A stretch of 64,000 bases of DNA from positions 141,356 through 205,355 of the forward strand of contig JBAZNI010000002.1 in the NCBI GenBank assembly GCA_041649295.1, written 5' to 3'. This DNA is from Candidatus Pacearchaeota archaeon. GTDB lineage: Archaea; Nanobdellota; Nanobdellia; Pacearchaeales; GW2011-AR1. A program made the position numbers and the translations under genes. Positions 774 through 28,790 of this stretch are shown piece after piece. Within the stretch, counting starts at the first letter, position 1. Each line of letters starts with the position of its first letter. The notes beneath the pieces were generated by a model. That model ran no database searches. It was not told the DNA's origin and saw only the letters and a program-made list of their open reading frames with translations.

Positions 774-838
774 AATTCTTTTTTAATGGCTAACTAACAG
801 CAAAGTTTTTTAAAGCATTTGACTTTTGATTTTAGAAT

Positions 839-911
839 AGCCCTGTAGGATAGTGGTCAAGTCTACGAGCCTTTGGAGCTTGTGACCCAGGTTCGAATCC
901 TGGCGGGGCTA
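839..911 (+). tRNA. tRNA-Gln (anticodon TTG)
   Basis: Hand-folded cloverleaf: acceptor AGCCCTG/CGGGGCT (A1-U72 as in archaeal tRNA-Gln), anticodon stem CGAGC/GCTTG, loop CTTTGGA, T-arm CCAGG-TTCGAAT-CCTGG. Confidence 0.85.
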
Positions 912-995
912 TTGCCAGTATTCGAAGTGCTCATGAAGCAGAACTTCCTGGCAAATTATATTCTTGCGAATCTAATTAATCCTGGCGGGGCTATT
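896..995 (+). repeat. tRNA-3'-end duplication bracketing a conserved ~64-nt module (tRNA-Gln copy)
   Basis: AATCCTGGCGGGGCTATT occurs at 896..913 (end of tRNA-Gln) and again at 978..995. The 64 nt between them are about 85% identical to the module 3' of tRNA-Arg (28635..28698). Confidence 0.75.
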
Positions 996-1162
996 TTATT
1001 ATTAAACAAAGGGGATAAGCGGAGATTTATGATTTAAACATATAAACAGATTTTTAACTCTTAAAATTTACGAGTTTTTACCAAAAGGTATATATATAAT
1101 TTCTTTAAAATAATAGACTCTGATTTAGAGTTATATTGAATGAAAGGAGGTTAAAAAAAGAG

Positions 1163-7236: not shown

Positions 7237-7435
7237 AATAATTTCAAGTTTAACTCCTCCCAACAGAACCTAACTATTTAGTCATACGCCCTGTCGGAGC
7301 ATTGAACTAAAATAGCTCATAGTTATTCGGTTTATGTAAAAGATTTAACTTCAAGAATCTTGAAGTTTTTATTCTTGATAGTGCTCAAGATTTAAAAAAT
7401 CTTGACCTCCTAGGGTTAGATTACCCCACGAAATG

Positions 7436-11987: not shown

Positions 11988-12473
11988 ATTGTAAGTTGCT
12001 AATGTTTTTTGGCATTCAATTTCTTGACAGCTAACTTGGCACTTAACCTCTTGAAATATTAACGGGCATACATTTAATTTAGATAAATTAGATATAAAAA
12101 CATTACTTAAAATGTTATTTGAAAAATTGCCAGGATTAAAGTTACAACTAAAAAAAGCCCTACTTTGCACAATGGGCACAACTCCGGATTTTAGTTGAGT
12201 CAAATTTCATAAGAATATTATAAATGAGACATTTATAAGGTTTTTGCTCAGCCCTTATTTGACTATTTCTAATACTTATAGATTAAGAGATGTATAGGCA
12301 GAGCTCTGCCATAATCTAATCACTTTTAATTTAATATGGGTTAAAAACTCATTAGAGGCACTCGGCAAGCCTCCAGAGAGAGCTGAGCCGATTAGTTCAG
12401 TTCTCTTAAGATTTTTCTGTATTTCTTAACATTGATATCTGATTTTAACTTCTTATCTTCTTTATTTACCATT

Positions 12474-12899
12474 TTAAATTTTTATGCTCTTCATATTTAA
12501 CTTTATCATACCATTTAAACCTTGACTTCTTCTTTTTCTTTTCTTCGTTTTATCTTTCAGTTTATTTTCGACTACTCTTCCATGTATTACTCTACCTAAC
12601 ACATCTCGTTTAACCTTTCTTTTAAATTTATCATGAATATCCGCATGATGATTTGGGCATAATATTTTTAGATTAGATATGCGATTATCATCATTTTTCA
12701 TATTTAAATGGTGAACTTGTAAATGCTTATTATGATTGCAACCTTTCCACTCACATTTATTCTTTGCTCTTTCCATAAGTTGACGCCTTTTCTTAGCAGA
12801 AACAGGTTCCCTAACGTGACCCCCAATCATTCTTATTGTATCTCGCTTCCTAGGTATAACCTTTTTTAAATTACCAATTTCAAATAAACTTTTTGGCAT
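12474..12899 (-). CDS. HNH endonuclease
   Basis: CEWKGCNHNKHLQVHHLNMKNDDNRISNLKILCPNHHADIH is a classic HNH motif with flanking Cys/His; basic tails. Confidence 0.8.
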   Translation of the reverse strand: MPKSLFEIGNLKKVIPRKRDTIRMIGGHVREPVSAKKRRQLMERAKNKCEWKGCNHNKHLQVHHLNMKNDDNRISNLKILCPNHHADIHDKFKRKVKRDVLGRVIHGRVVENKLKDKTKKRKRRSQGLNGMIKLNMKSIKI

Positions 12900-12933
12900 A
12901 TAAAATACAAGAATTCAAACGATTTAAAGGTTA

Positions 12934-13545
12934 CTAAATTGGAGTAATTCCTGCATCAATTAACTCTTGTGCTCTATTTTCGCAAGAAGCAGAAACTACT
13001 GAGAAATTTTTATATGTATCTATTAAATACGACCCAGTTTTTGGTTTTTCCCAAGTATCTTCATCTGTTGGAGCTAAAACAAGACTAATATCATATAGTT
13101 TTCCGTTCCAACCGAGAATAACCCCTGCGTCATCTTCAATTTGCTCTTGCCAACTATAAGTTGAAGGGAAGCAATAGTAATAATTAACATTTTGATTTTG
13201 TTGATTTCCTAGAGTACAATCATAGTAAAGTGAAGTCATTTCTATTTTCTGCTCATCTAGCCATGTATCAGCTATTTCAAATGTTTCCCATCCAGAATTC
13301 TCAGGATATGTTGAATAAATACGAACTTTCACTTTATCAGGAATAACTCCACTAGGACACTCATTTGGAAATGTTTTTCCTGAAGGCAACTTATCTATAT
13401 CCTCTTTAATATTGCCTCCAATATTTCCTAAATTATATTTAAATAATTGAAAACTTCCAGGATAGACAAGAAAAGTAACAATTAAACTACCTGCCACAAA
13501 GATAGCTAACCATAATAAAATATCTTTAAAATCATAATGACTCAT
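12934..13545 (-). CDS. membrane-anchored hypothetical protein
   Basis: A single N-terminal TM (ILLWLAIFVAGSLIVTFLVY) followed by an extracytoplasmic domain. No family recognised. Confidence 0.5.
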   Translation of the reverse strand: MSHYDFKDILLWLAIFVAGSLIVTFLVYPGSFQLFKYNLGNIGGNIKEDIDKLPSGKTFPNECPSGVIPDKVKVRIYSTYPENSGWETFEIADTWLDEQKIEMTSLYYDCTLGNQQNQNVNYYYCFPSTYSWQEQIEDDAGVILGWNGKLYDISLVLAPTDEDTWEKPKTGSYLIDTYKNFSVVSASCENRAQELIDAGITPI

Positions 13546-13608
13546 AAAAAGACTAAGAACTCAAAGGTTTTAAGGTTTTCTAAAACTGAGTTTTTGCTAA
13601 AAAGCCCA

Positions 13609-13680
13609 AGCCTCCAGAGGGGATTGAACCCTCAACCTACAGTTTACAAAACTGCCGCTCTACCATTGAGCTATGGAGGC
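13609..13680 (-). tRNA. tRNA-Thr (anticodon TGT)
   Basis: Acceptor GCCTCCA/TGGAGGC, D-arm GCTC-AATGGTA-GAGC, anticodon loop TTTGTAA, T-arm GAGGG-TTCAATC-CCCTC. Confidence 0.9.
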
Positions 13681-13730
13681 TTAAGAAAAGGAAATGTTAA
13701 TAGTTTAAAAACCTTATTAGAATTAATTTT

Positions 13731-15193: not shown

Positions 15194-15240
15194 TTGAAGA
15201 CAACCTACGGTTTTCTCTCACACACTTTCCCTTTATTTAG
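15194..15240 (+). repeat. tRNA-intron-like element (third copy, outside any tRNA)
   Basis: Plus strand TTGAAGACAACCTACGGTTTTCTCTCACACACTTTCCCTTTATTTAG. It shares AACCTACGGTTTTC with the tRNA-Arg intron and CTCTCACACAC with the tRNA-Leu intron, and abuts the rps3ae start codon on the opposite strand. Confidence 0.6.
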
Positions 15241-20800: not shown

Positions 20801-23603
20801 TAGTGGCAATATTATTTCAGCTATTAAAACAGATAACCCTGTTTATGATGAGATTATTGCTTTATCTTTTCAGAAGTTTGATTCTACTTCGTATAATAAC
20901 AAGTGGAGCAGTCCTAAGGTTAGGTATTATGAAACAGGGGTGTATAAGGGAATGCCTGCTGTTGTTCCTGTTGATGCTAGCAAAGGTTGGTATGCTGGGA
21001 CAAAACCTGTTCTTGCTGGTTTTGGAGATTCAACAACATTCCAGGAATCTGGAAGAGTTTCAAGTTTCTGGGTTTGTAATGTTGGTGAAAATGGAAGAGA
21101 GCAGTTTAATTCAGGATTAGGAGATGATGTTTGTGAGCAGTTTAATGTTGGAACAGGACAGTCATTCAGCACTTTCCCTGGACTTTCTGAAGCAGATGCA
21201 AGTTCTATTATTAAACAGGCAATGGCTGCACTAGAAGATGCTGCAAGAAATTATAAATCTGGACTTAAGAAAGTAAGTATAAGGGGTAAAACTTATGATG
21301 TAGATGATCCTGCTGTTGCTATTTCAGGAACAAGGTGTACTGATTTTATGTCTGCTAGAGATTGTCAGATAATGTTTAATGTTTGTGACCCGGTTATATG
21401 TCCAAGTTCAAGATGTAATTTAGGAGGAAGTTATTATGTAGATGATGTTGTTCAGAGTGGAATTGTTGGGAGTATTTTCTTATGCCTTCCAAATTATAAA
21501 GAAGGAATTTTCATACCTGTTTGCCTTACAGGAATTCATGCAGGAATTGAAAACTGGATTTCAATAATGAGTGCGTCGAGAGATTGTTTGCAAGAATCAA
21601 TTGATAGTGGAAGATATGTTGGAATTTGTGATGAGATAACTGCAATTTACAAATGCGAATTTTTCTGGAAGCAGTTTTCTCCTTTAATGAATAATATTAT
21701 TCCTAAGTTATTAGAAAGGTTATCTGGAAATAGTGTTAGAGGAGGAGGAGAATATCTTAGTGTTCAGTCTGCGTGGGATAATATGCAGAGTTCTATTAAT
21801 TATTTCAAGAATGAATATGGAGTTAATGCAATGAAAGCATTTAGAGCTCGTTCAACAGATGAAGTTGGAACAGAAGTTTGCAAGTCATTTATTTCATTTA
21901 AATATGCAAATAAATTTGAGACTTTAATAGAGCCTGACTCGCCTTCACAATATAGTGCTTGGTTTACAGAAATTCAGCAGACAACTGCAACAATACCTGC
22001 AATTTCTCAATATAAAGTTTATTATCATATTTATGCAGGAAATGATGCTGGAATTTACTATTCTGTTTATTTGAAAAACAGAGCTGGAGAGACATTTTAT
22101 GATAATACTGGTTATCTTAATGTTGTTGCTTCGGGATATATAAACAAGGGAGAGTATGTTGATATTGCAAAAGACTTTACAGCACCTTCTGGTTTCAAGG
22201 AATTATGCATTAGAGTTAATGGACAAGATGATTGTGGTTTTAAACAAGTATCTACTTCATTTGCACTTAATTATCTTAGAGATAAATATGTTCAGAGTGA
22301 AGCAACTGAGCAAATTACTAAAGAAGATGACTGCATATCTGGAACGCCGAATGCAGCAGCTGTATTATTAACTCCAAATATTCAGGCAGGTGTTGAAGAA
22401 AGTATTAATACTAATATTTATGAAAGAGGAATTATAAGAGTTTGTTCTACTGAAAATCCTGGTTCAACAACAGAACCTTCACGATGGGAAAAAGTAGGTT
22501 ATTGCACTGATAGTAAAGTTGGATGCTGGTTAGATACAGAATCTATTAGCAATGCAATAACTTCTGGAAATGTAGGTGTTAAAGATGCAACACTTGCAGA
22601 AATTCAGGCACTTGTAGATGAGCAGAAACAAGAGGAAAAAGCTGGAAGAGTCTATACTGATTTAGAAATAGCAAATGCACTAACAGAAGTTAGAAATAAA
22701 ATTCCTAATGTAAAAACAGAAGAAGAAGCTAGTGATTTAATTGTAGAATTAGAAACAATTGAAAATTCTCCAAGTATACTTGTGGAAAAACAAAGAGCTG
22801 AAATAATATTCCTTAAGGCAAAAACTAAAAGAGCACTTAGTGAGCAGCTTTGGAAAGAAGTTCAGGCAGGATTAGCTGTTAAAAGAGTTAATGATTATGC
22901 AGCGACTGGAAAAGAAAATCCAGAGGCTCCTGCGACGCCAGAGACACCCGAGACGCCTGAGACACCTGTTGAAACAGGGCTAAATGACGAAGTTCCAGAA
23001 GTTTTACAACCTTTATTCTTAGAAGTCTCTGAAAAAACAGGAGTTCCAGCAGCATTAATAGCAGCAATTTCAAATCAAGAGTGTAGTGATCTTTGGGGTG
23101 ATGCTCAAACAGATCCAACAAAAATAATTGATTTAATAGATAATGATAAGATTCCTGCAAGCAGAGATATTTGTAATTACAATAATAAATACAATGTATT
23201 TGGCCCGATGCAATTTAGGATTGGTAAAGCGTATTTGAAAGAACATGGTATGGAAATTTATCAAACTACTCCTGATGGAAAACCAAATCCCAATGTTGGA
23301 ACATGGGAAGGTTATGTATCTAACACAGCAGAATTATTAGAAATTGATGAAGAAGCACTCAGCCCATTAATTATTCGACATTCAGTATATGCTGCTGCTA
23401 TAAAATTAAAAAAAGATGCGGGAAGTCCTACTGATTGGACAGAAGCAGAAATTAAAGAAGCTGCGAAAGGATATTTTGGGGCTTGTACAGCAGAACAGAC
23501 TATTGGCGGGAAAAAAGTTACAGTTAATTATTGCGATGATATTATTTCTAAATATAATAAGTATAAGGTATTAAAAGAATCTACTCCTTTTCTTATTGCT
23601 TAA
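17877..23603 (+). CDS. giant secreted protein (1908 aa) with C-terminal lytic-transglycosylase (SLT/GH23)-like domain
   Basis: Sec signal MKIKLFLGIAFLLVLTLTIVSGAS, a Cys-rich central region, a PEAPATPETPETPETP linker, then VPAALIAAISNQECS...GPMQF resembling the SLT E-S...G-L-M-Q core. Confidence 0.7.
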   Translation: MKIKLFLGIAFLLVLTLTIVSGASTFEGDKYNSFGGSSYTYSSPQYTQPGFMGSDSGYYGLYPGYDRETCQARMDFLIQIAPGGCTPAVVRSDLLAEQDVAVFCKLQALQINPFIDTTTIRNLVITHRGNLPEGVSGVGYHRPQIALTNGYNEQGFFTLDNIGYAVIKIKQQPDERKLLDSVSGNLTIKVQYDASNTFGMGKSELISPALSLEEWQADYPKYGIMNGQVYLRVESIEEENVRVSVYRDFNTKIDTINLKRGETSAEKYLSGFNCAAAYTISVGDSIAPRPKAKINFQGDVYDVYQGEKFADGVCIVDKISPGVLGTGSVTGKCYNKQFVLRLNQKPVQLEVDGTTKEIAVGSKIKEGVYLAGSGIYLDTKFVLLFKGASYDSASKITAQKNVDLIKKQGTSVELTDKDKYVVLVIDELGIGGSQINSGIKFVELKVADNFVSDNPDFENSFSSAIGYYEEVEDNYGEFETMDNENYEIYGVVALDEASSFASNVWKKETAVELAQKLKDKYNVVSSVLLTETNFDYSESASVIDVNDLSYSISLESVDEPEEKDYAVLIEIDGALAPPVKREGTVLFDNIKVDSFTNKEVKITGKCADKDVGETLKLAETKEICGKIIYVKQINYNSYAKISFEPITRRLGSEVNISYSIGIEKRAIELNPEKAAERIKKLNESIAKWTNINKNLGDVVKTMKTACFATTAALQVKNLFGNLGGKAIARNSVMTSDNGWNQKCTDIVAENPSISFDKCIKDNADKIESDVEARYKAIQEVNNAIKEIESNLPAQDGILNTKVIDTEASLDKTIKNIQSEFGNDATYKDKVAMLNKETLSYDEAREIWVNLKLQRESASEVLKLSSKTSLENTFKSIEAIQKRESVKDKLEAGSVTDNFVFGTIETDKSAKVIPYSGSVAEKDLVSGGVIISKGKPVGGVTVGASNYMVELVNTGENKYKVAKGDDNTAHIYEIGDSGNIISAIKTDNPVYDEIIALSFQKFDSTSYNNKWSSPKVRYYETGVYKGMPAVVPVDASKGWYAGTKPVLAGFGDSTTFQESGRVSSFWVCNVGENGREQFNSGLGDDVCEQFNVGTGQSFSTFPGLSEADASSIIKQAMAALEDAARNYKSGLKKVSIRGKTYDVDDPAVAISGTRCTDFMSARDCQIMFNVCDPVICPSSRCNLGGSYYVDDVVQSGIVGSIFLCLPNYKEGIFIPVCLTGIHAGIENWISIMSASRDCLQESIDSGRYVGICDEITAIYKCEFFWKQFSPLMNNIIPKLLERLSGNSVRGGGEYLSVQSAWDNMQSSINYFKNEYGVNAMKAFRARSTDEVGTEVCKSFISFKYANKFETLIEPDSPSQYSAWFTEIQQTTATIPAISQYKVYYHIYAGNDAGIYYSVYLKNRAGETFYDNTGYLNVVASGYINKGEYVDIAKDFTAPSGFKELCIRVNGQDDCGFKQVSTSFALNYLRDKYVQSEATEQITKEDDCISGTPNAAAVLLTPNIQAGVEESINTNIYERGIIRVCSTENPGSTTEPSRWEKVGYCTDSKVGCWLDTESISNAITSGNVGVKDATLAEIQALVDEQKQEEKAGRVYTDLEIANALTEVRNKIPNVKTEEEASDLIVELETIENSPSILVEKQRAEIIFLKAKTKRALSEQLWKEVQAGLAVKRVNDYAATGKENPEAPATPETPETPETPVETGLNDEVPEVLQPLFLEVSEKTGVPAALIAAISNQECSDLWGDAQTDPTKIIDLIDNDKIPASRDICNYNNKYNVFGPMQFRIGKAYLKEHGMEIYQTTPDGKPNPNVGTWEGYVSNTAELLEIDEEALSPLIIRHSVYAAAIKLKKDAGSPTDWTEAEIKEAAKGYFGACTAEQTIGGKKVTVNYCDDIISKYNKYKVLKESTPFLIA

Positions 23604-28500: not shown

Positions 28501-28634
28501 GCTCCCGTAGCTCAGCCTGGATAGAGCGATAGCCTTCTAGTGATGTGGGAAAACCTACGGTTTTCCTAACACTACCTTTCCCTTAAGGTAGAGAAGAAAG
28601 CTATAGGTCGCAGGTTCGAATCCTGTCGGGAGCA
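28501..28634 (+). tRNA. tRNA-Arg (anticodon TCT) with 59-nt intron after position 37
   Basis: Acceptor GCTCCCG/CGGGAGC, D-arm GCTC-AGCCTGGATA-GAGC, anticodon stem ATAGC/GCTAT, loop CTTCTA|intron 28540..28598|A, T-arm GCAGG-TTCGAAT-CCTGT. Confidence 0.85.
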
Positions 28635-28790
28635 TTAACGGATTCGAAGTGCTCATGAAGCAAAGCTTCCTGGCAACTTATATTCTGTGAATCTAAGTAA
28701 TCCTGTCGGGAGCATTAACGGATTCGAAGTGCTCATGAAGCAAAGCTTCCTGGCAACTTATATTCTGCGAATCTAAGTAATCTTGCAGGA
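28619..28790 (+). repeat. two tandem 80-nt units (tRNA-Arg 3' end plus 64-nt module) and a degenerate third start
   Basis: Units 28619..28698 and 28699..28778 differ at one position (CTGTGAATC versus CTGCGAATC). Each begins with AATCCTGTCGGGAGCA; a third AATCTTGCAGGA start at 28779 is degenerate. Confidence 0.85.

Follow-up and report, generated by a model that had tools for sequence, protein, structure and literature searches.

Within the window, a 64,000-nt stretch of a Candidatus Pacearchaeota genome, the 82 nt that follow the tRNA-Gln gene (positions 914-995) are probably a recent insertion from a family of mobile DNA modules in Pacearchaeota and Woesearchaeota that are small, non-coding and non-autonomous. 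The heritable part of the module is a 51-nt core of two hairpins, which is conserved as a DNA structure and has its landing sites in tRNA genes, towards their 3' ends. With each insertion come copies of its target, a direct one that runs from the T-loop or T-stem to past the 3' end and an inverted one of the T-arm, and because the tail of the tRNA is copied at insertion the tRNA gene stays intact. A literature word search returned no description of such elements, and as far as we could find the module family is undescribed.

The tRNA-Gln gene was placed by both ARAGORN and Rfam, and this placement, with its T-loop at 892-898, identifies the 18-mer AATCCTGGCGGGGCTATT as tRNA positions 58-73 plus two trailing T residues (Table). 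An earlier note on this DNA had claimed that an 18-nt duplication of the tRNA-Gln 3' end brackets the module, and we found the 18-mer, without mismatch, at exactly two places in the window, 896-913 and 978-995. There is no third copy in the window even when three mismatches are allowed (chance expectation 0.01), and an independent repeat search returned the same direct pair. The order at the locus is intact tRNA-Gln, module, spare 3' end.

The 64 nt between the two copies had been treated as a single module, a description that stands for the conserved 51-nt core but not for the first 13 nt, which are an inverted copy of the tRNA's own T-arm. This piece, GCCAGTATTCGAA, is the reverse complement of 892-904 (tRNA-Gln positions 54-66) at 12 of 13 positions; the repeat search reports the pair as 92% complementary with a 9-nt spacer, and 892-926 as DNA is predicted to fold into a hairpin of -9.3 kcal/mol (z = -3.7). 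At the equivalent place the tRNA-Arg copy of the module carries a different inverted piece, ACGGATTCGAA, which matches tRNA-Arg. As the inverted piece differs between the two loci and matches its own tRNA at each, it is derived from the target, and judged by these matches 914-926 lies outside the conserved core. The additional pairing that the note had described between TTGCCAG (912-918) and CTGGCAA (948-954) is real in that the two heptamers are complementary.

An alignment of eight cores (A1) gave 19 base pairs in RNAalifold, nine of them with compensatory changes, and a covariance model, R1, was then built. The DNA fold of 927-977 predicts the same two hairpins on both strands. The 82-nt block contains no ORF, and the next ORF downstream starts at about 1136-1164. 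Neither ARAGORN nor Rfam (at E up to 1) found a tRNA or any other family in 913-1180, the only Rfam match being the tRNA itself, which indicates that the spare 3' end is not part of another functional gene. The repeat search also suggested a degenerate copy at 1024-1079, colinear with the 5' region of the tRNA, which failed on alignment and was rejected. The T-rich stretch past the spare end is probably the original tRNA terminator, shifted by the 82-nt insertion; in the empty site of a related genome, G020, TTTATTC stands directly after tRNA-Gln.

Table. Coordinates of the tRNA-Gln locus, its insert and related features in the window.
Feature	Positions	Strand	Basis or remark
Intact tRNA-Gln(UUG)	838-912	+	ARAGORN
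tRNA-Gln	839-911	+	Rfam RF00005, 61.4 bits
T-loop TTCGAAT of tRNA-Gln (positions 54-60)	892-898	+	
T-stem 3' strand of tRNA-Gln	899-903	+	
Acceptor 3' strand of tRNA-Gln	904-910	+	
Discriminator A73 of tRNA-Gln	911	+	
Direct repeat copy 1, within the functional gene	896-913	+	tRNA positions 58-73 plus TT
Inverted copy of own T-loop and T-stem 3' strand	914-926	+	12/13 match
Conserved 51-nt two-hairpin core, forward (tRNA strand)	927-977	+	Covariance model R1, 73.3 bits, E = 6.5e-14
Hairpin 1 of core	928-953	+	DNA fold
Hairpin 2 of core	954-977	+	DNA fold
Direct repeat copy 2, spare tRNA 3' end	978-995	+	Begins at A58, directly after the core
T-rich stretch TTTTATTATT past the spare 3' end	994-1003	+	
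Possible relic: tRNA-Arg-3'-end-like sequence (7289-7306) and core-like hairpin 1 (7382-7405)	7289-7405	+	R1 E = 0.2, weak
tRNA-Arg(UCU), intron-bearing	28501-28634	+	
Sister copies: two tandem 80-nt units behind tRNA-Arg(UCU)	28619-28778	+	Cores 28649-28698 and 28729-28778, forward

That the block looks like an insertion was also part of the earlier note, and comparison of tRNA-Gln loci with and without it bears this out. Four genomes of the same genus carry tRNA-Gln genes that are 100% (G020) or 97-99% (G006, G010 and G011) identical to the one studied here, and in each the gene is followed directly by a T-rich spacer with no inverted piece, core or spare end. As the 82 nt are missing behind 97-100% identical tRNA genes, the block is an insertion. 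In G018, whose tRNA-Gln ortholog is 88% identical, a different core stands 110 nt downstream of the gene and points the other way, an independent event on the same tRNA. At tRNA-Pro, G003 has the same 3' region with no module, a weaker comparison because synteny is lost at that locus.

The 64 nt had been described as a relative of the module behind tRNA-Arg, and this relationship holds under formal statistics: identity to both tRNA-Arg units is 93% over 56 nt, with E of about 1e-14 within the 812-kb genome. A possibly degenerate junction copy had been reported at about 7289-7306, near AbiE-like genes. The sequence there, CCTGTCGGAGCATTGAAC, is real, and a core-like first hairpin, GTGCTCAAGATTTAAAAAATCTTGA, lies 75 nt downstream of it, but together they amount to a weak relic only, which adjoins the AbiE-like gene pair away from any tRNA. 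An intron-like mini-element at 15194-15240 has a different sequence and does not match R1.

The host genome (0.81 Mb, 31% G+C, five contigs, 90% complete) has many intron-bearing tRNA genes and carries short modules of several families behind its tRNAs. The family studied here, family A, is represented by 10 cores behind seven tRNAs, nine of them full-length by R1 and one diverged and found by nhmmer; the hosts are Gln, Arg (two cores), Met (two), Pro, Lys(CUU) (two), Lys(UUU) and a Gln(CUG)-like tRNA, the last of which ARAGORN labelled 'Pyl'. An exact copy of the last 12 nt is found 72-108 nt downstream of 10 tRNAs: Ser(UGA), Lys(CUU), Ala(UGC), Met, Gly(GCC), Lys(UUU), Ile(UAU), Gln(CUG)-like, Gln(UUG) and Arg(UCU). 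With tRNA-Pro, whose spare end has one mismatch, 11 of the 38 tRNAs carry a spare 3' end when all module families are counted. Tandem arrays of 80-115-nt units occur at Arg, Met and Lys in this genome and in G017 and G078 amongst its relatives, and cores inside such arrays are not independent observations.

Amongst relatives, all of which are metagenome bins like the genome studied, full-length cores matching R1 were found in 17 of 151 genomes and 16 of the 150 sampled genera of the taxonomic family. Within the genus, copy numbers per genome were 22, 17, 9, 8, 5, 3 and, in four genomes, 1, with none in another eleven; the richest relatives are G005 (22 cores), G004 (17) and G007 (8). Such patchy, burst-like copy numbers are typical of mobile DNA. 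In a species collection, a degenerate core pattern matched only Candidatus Pacearchaeota and Woesearchaeota MAGs plus one Spirochaetota genome, a match lacking both hairpin 1 and a tRNA that we dismissed as chance, and it had no matches in a collection of viral contigs. In a nearest-neighbour test, cores clustered weakly both by tRNA type and by genome. The membership of the core in a large, lineage-wide family, and the minority orientation of the Gln and Arg copies, had not been part of the earlier description.

In an alignment of 82 cores (A2), 93.3% of cells were in standard pairs, compared with 74% in shuffles and 30-59% when partners were slid, and both sides change in 18 of the 19 stem pairs. 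Compensatory cells numbered 258, against 64 expected from the shuffles, and none of 500 shuffles reached any of the observed pairing measures. G-T or T-G accounted for 11 and A-C or C-A for 25 of the 1411 cells, together 2.5%, so the pairing is almost purely Watson-Crick; this, with the occurrence of the core in both orientations, favours a constraint on DNA hairpins over one on a strand-specific RNA. Such a constraint may bear on single strands once they are folded, or templated correction may keep the palindrome perfect. The slight A-C excess, which corresponds to wobble pairs on the opposite strand, is weak and does not come from independent events. The ends of the core are not inverted repeats of each other. 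By eye, no C/D-box, H/ACA or hammerhead features are present in the core, and it has no Rfam match. A possible archaeal promoter (TTATAT about 26 nt before the spare end) was also rejected, as the core is found either way round and transcription from such a promoter would be predicted to start right at the T-run.

At least 56 of the 77 cores from relatives follow a tRNA on its 3' side at a distance of 15-220 nt (tRNAs as called by ARAGORN, a program that misses some intron-rich tRNA genes), and about 30 different tRNAs are represented. Several of the remaining cores have tRNA-type flanks and lie at contig ends or beside tRNAs missed by detection. We call a core reverse when its defined strand is antisense to the tRNA and forward when it is on the same strand; 50 of the 56 are reverse and six forward, and the Gln and Arg copies of the genome studied have the rarer forward form. 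At 36 of 45 reverse-type loci, 8 nt or more from the 3' end of the neighbouring tRNA are repeated exactly and with zero gap after the core, beginning 11-13 nt before the end of the tRNA, at positions 61-63. At 25 of the 45, the tRNA's own T-stem 5' strand and T-loop stand immediately before the core. Read on the core strand, these flanks join as a continuous antisense of tRNA positions ~50-76, so that the core interrupts a second, partial copy of the tRNA at 60/61 or 61/62; for the reverse orientation as a whole, its place ranges from 60/61 to 62/63. An inverted copy of positions ~53-63 stands between this partial copy and the real tRNA.

Forward-type loci, including Gln and Arg here, have an inverted T-arm piece, the core and then a direct copy that begins at position 58 or 53. 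Most of the units examined, whichever their orientation, thus have an inverted copy of the T-stem region on the side near the tRNA and, farther out, a direct copy that ends just past the 3' end. In one subfamily (L093, L105, L118 and L119), the core is preceded by a module-borne AAGTATTC, and this in turn by the inverted T-stem 3' strand. The duplication is 12-37 nt long, its junction is at 58 or 53 in the forward type versus 61-63 in the reverse type, and the spacer between the inverted arms ranges from 9 to 20 nt or more. Neither the junction variation nor the variation in duplication length fits a simple cut-and-fill scheme. Members of a related subfamily lie in A-rich DNA immediately upstream of start codons with no tRNA nearby, which indicates that the targeting of tRNAs is not absolute.

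Closely related cores show where the flanks come from. In G109, cores that are 92-94% identical stand behind tRNA-Ser(GGA), tRNA-Ser(CGA), tRNA-Glu and tRNA-Tyr, each with the flanks of its own tRNA, and the same is true in the genome studied of the 93% identical Gln and Arg cores and likewise of those at Met and Pro. Since near-identical cores have target-specific direct and inverted flanks, the flanks were copied from the target at insertion. In older, more diverged copies the spare ends have one or two mismatches or are no longer present, which suggests that the flanks are not homogenised by ongoing conversion afterwards. As read from these alignments, the flank pattern argues against att sites borne by the element and speaks for an insertion process in which the target is copied as a template.

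Some insertions also carry cargo. In relatives, the inverted piece and the core are separated by 75 nt in L055 and by more than 150 nt in L067. The genome studied has integrase-less inserts with cargo at tRNA ends, namely a 1.2-kb islet at tRNA-Thr and an array at tRNA-Ala with a 67-aa ORF and a 45-nt tRNA-Ala 3' half that differs from the resident gene, and its contig C3 is bounded by tRNA-Asp repeats. No family A core was seen beside the distal repeats of gene-bearing inserts in this genome, the Thr islet included.

A survey of enzymes gave no candidate that follows the module. Cas1 (PF01867) had no match in the 90%-complete genome, where Y1 (HUH) transposase is represented by a 66-aa remnant only. 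Amongst relatives, Y1 transposases are absent from G005, G004 and G007 (22, 17 and 8 cores) but occur in most genomes of the genus that have no core, while reverse transcriptases (RVT_1) are absent from the two richest genomes, G005 and G004, and present in many zero-copy genomes; both were rejected. Two XerA-type tyrosine recombinases of the genome studied, each above the NF040815 cut-off, are encoded far from the modules and have no integron-integrase insertion, TIGR02249 having matched in two split stretches below its cut-off. Tyrosine recombinases were likewise set aside, as their counts bear no relation to core copy number at the level of either family or genus; G005, with 22 cores, has just two weak matches. 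No integrase was found in or near the modules. Judged by gene content, none of the enzyme types examined (Cas1, Y1, reverse transcriptase and integrase) appears to account for the module, and the mobilising activity may be a general host function or an agent not binned with the genomes.

Duplication/inverted-triplication products arise from two template switches at an inverted repeat. The arrangement of an intact gene, an inverted piece and a partial copy with the core resembles their layout, which favours fold-back template switching as the route of insertion. We propose, as the anatomy of the insertions suggests, that insertion would begin when the tRNA gene is broken or nicked in its T-loop region, and that DNA synthesis would then complete it by folding back at the T-arm palindrome and switching template there. 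The switch would regenerate the tRNA gene and leave the direct and inverted copies behind; the T-stem arms would supply the inverted repeat for switching, the hairpin core would be either the recognised structure or the carried cargo, and the enzyme responsible would act in trans. This scheme would account for the variable duplication (12-37 nt), the target-specific copies and the kept tRNA, and it leaves the agent that makes the break and the orientation-dependent junction without explanation. The module is probably of no benefit to the cell: it would lengthen the tRNA 3' trailer and could be lost cleanly by recombination between the repeats.

Several other explanations were weighed against insertion of a mobile module by templated copying. 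We think it unlikely that the locus is the scar of site-specific recombination or a CIME-like mini-element mobilised by an integrase, with the 18-mers as attL and attR and the 64 nt as arms left after cargo loss or as a cargo-less hitch-hiker using an integrase in trans. The geometry is classical, with a direct repeat from T-loop to 3' end and an intact tRNA; copy 1 and 914-926 form a lox-like 13-9-13 inverted repeat, XerA-type recombinases exist in the genome, and both its own integrase-less inserts (the Thr islet, the Ala array and the Asp-bounded contig) and the cargo of 75 to more than 150 nt in relatives could be read in this way. However, near-identical cores have tRNA-specific repeats, so that an att site would need to be rewritten at every move, and the spacer between the inverted arms is not constant. 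The lack of an integrase in or near the modules and the recombinase counts, which are uncorrelated with copies (G005 in particular), speak against it too, as do the implausibility of an 82-nt double-stranded circle as a substrate and the missing core pattern in the viral contig collection. It is less probable again that the core is a functional RNA made from the tRNA 3' trailer (a small RNA, an antisense RNA in the reverse type, or a terminator or processing structure) that spread through its usefulness. As no oligo-T run separates the tRNA from the spare end, co-transcription of the module is probable, and its structure is strongly conserved; read on the strand that is co-transcribed at reverse-type loci, there are 25 wobble-type cells versus 11 A-C cells, and the core-forward strand of the reverse type is an interrupted antisense of tRNA positions ~50-76. 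Against this stand the essentially Watson-Crick pairing, with G-T or A-C of any kind in 2.5% of cells, the use of both orientations relative to the tRNA, presence and absence at near-identical tRNA loci, the range from 0 to 22 copies in one genus and the decay of spare ends with age, as well as the lack of an Rfam match and, by eye, of C/D, H/ACA and bulge-helix-bulge features.

Tandem arrays of 80-115-nt units show that local duplication happens, and replication slippage, tandem duplication or an assembly artefact with no mobility could be envisaged on that ground. We nevertheless regard this as very improbable: slippage cannot put a 93% identical 51-nt core behind two tRNAs that are 28 kb apart, and dozens of genomes from independent assemblies carry the same core at about 30 tRNAs, always under one set of junction rules. 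Archaea are known to have non-canonical introns in the T-loop and tRNA introns are abundant in this genome, and in the minimum-energy RNAfold structure of 838-1000 it is the second copy with which the 5' acceptor strand pairs, as it would if the gene were split by an intron, 896-977 being spliced out and the mature tRNA being 838-895 plus 978-994. That the block is such an intron is scarcely credible, given that the upstream copy is already a complete, high-scoring tRNA, that older copies have decayed spare ends and that relatives have the same tRNA with no block; by eye, no bulge-helix-bulge was found at any of the 19 equivalent registers, and the junction is predicted to be four-way.

The mobile module shares features with several known systems. 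Like integrative elements and CIMEs, it has a direct repeat of the tRNA 3' end, an intact tRNA and stacked units with or without cargo. Unlike them, it has no integrase in cis, its unit is 80-115 nt, the conserved part is a two-hairpin structure rather than a sequence-specific att arm, and the repeats, along with the extra inverted copy of the T-arm, are target-specific even for cores that are 93% identical. Casposons, which depend on Cas1, also insert at tRNA 3' ends with a target duplication of more than 10 nt, and the layout here resembles a repeat-spacer-repeat array; in contrast to casposons, the module has no Cas1 and no terminal inverted repeats, its duplication is 12-37 nt rather than ~14-15 nt, and an inverted target copy is added. 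Integron attC sites and cassettes offer a further parallel in that a folded single-strand structure is conserved and units with and without ORFs stack, mostly in one orientation. The module differs from them in having no IntI, no consistent R'/R'' core sites (by eye), a tRNA as its landing site and 12-37 nt duplicated.

Short elements with hairpins offer other comparisons. REP/REPIN sequences with RAYT and palindromes derived from IS200/IS605 are, like the module, short, non-coding, hairpin-forming, non-autonomous, presumed to be moved in trans and patchy in copy number, but they have no target duplication and do not target tRNAs. The module does not qualify as a MITE, as it lacks terminal inverted repeats, no parent element was found and its duplication is variable and long. 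Very small, mobile, non-coding double-hairpin elements have been described from fungal mitochondrial DNA (Paquin et al. 2000, as cited in PMC5910586); as presented in that citing article, they share with the module the two hairpins, the lack of a transposase of their own and a mechanism that has not been established. Their hosts belong to another domain of life, and mitochondrial DNA is another type of genome. We know of no tie between these fungal elements and tRNA 3' ends, nor of direct or inverted copies derived from their targets. Transposed tRNA introns of the Thermoproteales (Fujishima et al. 2010) are likewise short related sequences in many tRNAs of one archaeal lineage, whereas the mature tRNA does not include the module, which has duplicated exon flanks and, by eye, no bulge-helix-bulge.

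A more far-reaching reading, which we put forward tentatively as possible though doubtful, is that these loci reflect an unrecognised route of insertion. In it, an activity in trans, distinct from Cas1, Y1 (HUH) and a resident reverse transcriptase, would open tRNA genes at the junction of T-loop and T-stem, and fold-back, template-switching synthesis on the T-arm palindrome would rebuild the tRNA, with one direct and one inverted target copy left on the two sides of the two-hairpin cargo. The same entry would load integrase-less cassettes at tRNA ends, and tRNA genes would then be integron-like platforms for gene capture in DPANN archaea.

Genes for tRNAs are classic landing sites of mobile DNA, so far explained by integrases or casposases. 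Here, a 51-nt module defined by its structure targets many tRNAs and keeps an essential single-copy tRNA, and no enzyme from the classes known so far can be recognised behind it. Annotators should mask both the modules and the spare 3' ends rather than call them as tRNA fragments or small genes. Working out the mechanism could explain the frequent partial tRNA fragments in bins, a practical problem of annotation, and could tell whether a new hairpin-recognising recombination or a repair-coupled insertion route exists. It could also explain how integrase-less gene cassettes come to be stacked at tRNA ends in the tiny genomes of DPANN archaea.

Behind tRNA-Thr, 13 nt from the 3′ end of the tRNA are repeated and set the limits of a 1.24-kb insert; a short hairpin (TCGGC...GCCGA) carries the distal copy in its loop. 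The insert holds ORFs for a 203-aa membrane-type protein and a 141-aa protein with an HNH motif, and no integrase was found within it. Another arrangement lies behind tRNA-Ala(UGC), where four spare 3′ ends, direct copies of the 3′ part of the tRNA gene, are stacked. This array comprises two distinct short modules, a 361-nt cassette, and a repeated module of family B, found at tRNA ends and separate from the family of the 51-nt two-hairpin core. The cassette encodes a 67-aa ORF and terminates in a 45-nt tRNA-Ala 3′ half whose sequence is not that of the resident tRNA-Ala. As a whole, the array has the appearance of units stacked as in an integron, here at the end of a tRNA.

Feature coordinates (C1 to C3, contigs of the host genome)
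Feature	Location	Remarks
tRNA-Asp(GUC) and 12-nt copy of its 3′ end	C3 (21,715 nt), 116 and 21589-21662	
tRNA-Ala(UGC) array	C1, 111650-112361	minus strand
tRNA-Thr insert, 1.24 kb	window 12366-13621	tRNA-Thr at 13608-13681, minus strand
tRNA-Arg 3′-end-like sequence with core-like first hairpin	window 7289-7405	
tRNA-Arg(UCU), intron-bearing	window 28501-28634	ARAGORN with intron option: 'SeC'
tRNA with 3′ region almost identical to tRNA-Gln	C1:524805-524894	ARAGORN with intron option: 'Pyl(cta)'
XerA-type tyrosine recombinase paralogues (two)	C2:73523-74008; C1:213218-213691	XerA model match
IS200-type Y1 transposase remnant, 66 aa	C1:448559-448675	
Core subfamily (ACGCTCA...GGCGCCTCAAGTTCTTACGAACTTAAGG)	loci L096, L110-L114, L120	same-genus genomes G004, G005, G007

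Contig C3 as a whole is flanked by tRNA-Asp(GUC) and the 3′-end copy, and the sequences trailing the two are alike; the contig probably represents either an integrated element of 21 kb or a replicon of its own. Close to the end of contig C1 there is another tRNA-Asp. Within the window, the tRNA-Arg 3′-end-like sequence and the core-like first hairpin adjoin the AbiE-like gene pair, distant from any tRNA, and may be what is left of a cassette formerly at tRNA-Arg.

Both XerA-type paralogues of this 0.8-Mb archaeal genome exceed the model cut-off, and counts of one to five are common across the taxonomic family. A decayed insertion sequence is represented by the Y1 transposase remnant, which lies some 1.2 kb downstream from tRNA-Asn(GUU). 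The two anomalous ARAGORN labels are probably mislabels caused by introns.

Among the same-genus relatives, one subfamily of the two-hairpin core is set in A-rich intergenic DNA without a nearby tRNA. These cores often end a few bases upstream of a start codon, so that a role in ribosome binding is possible for their AAGG(A) end.
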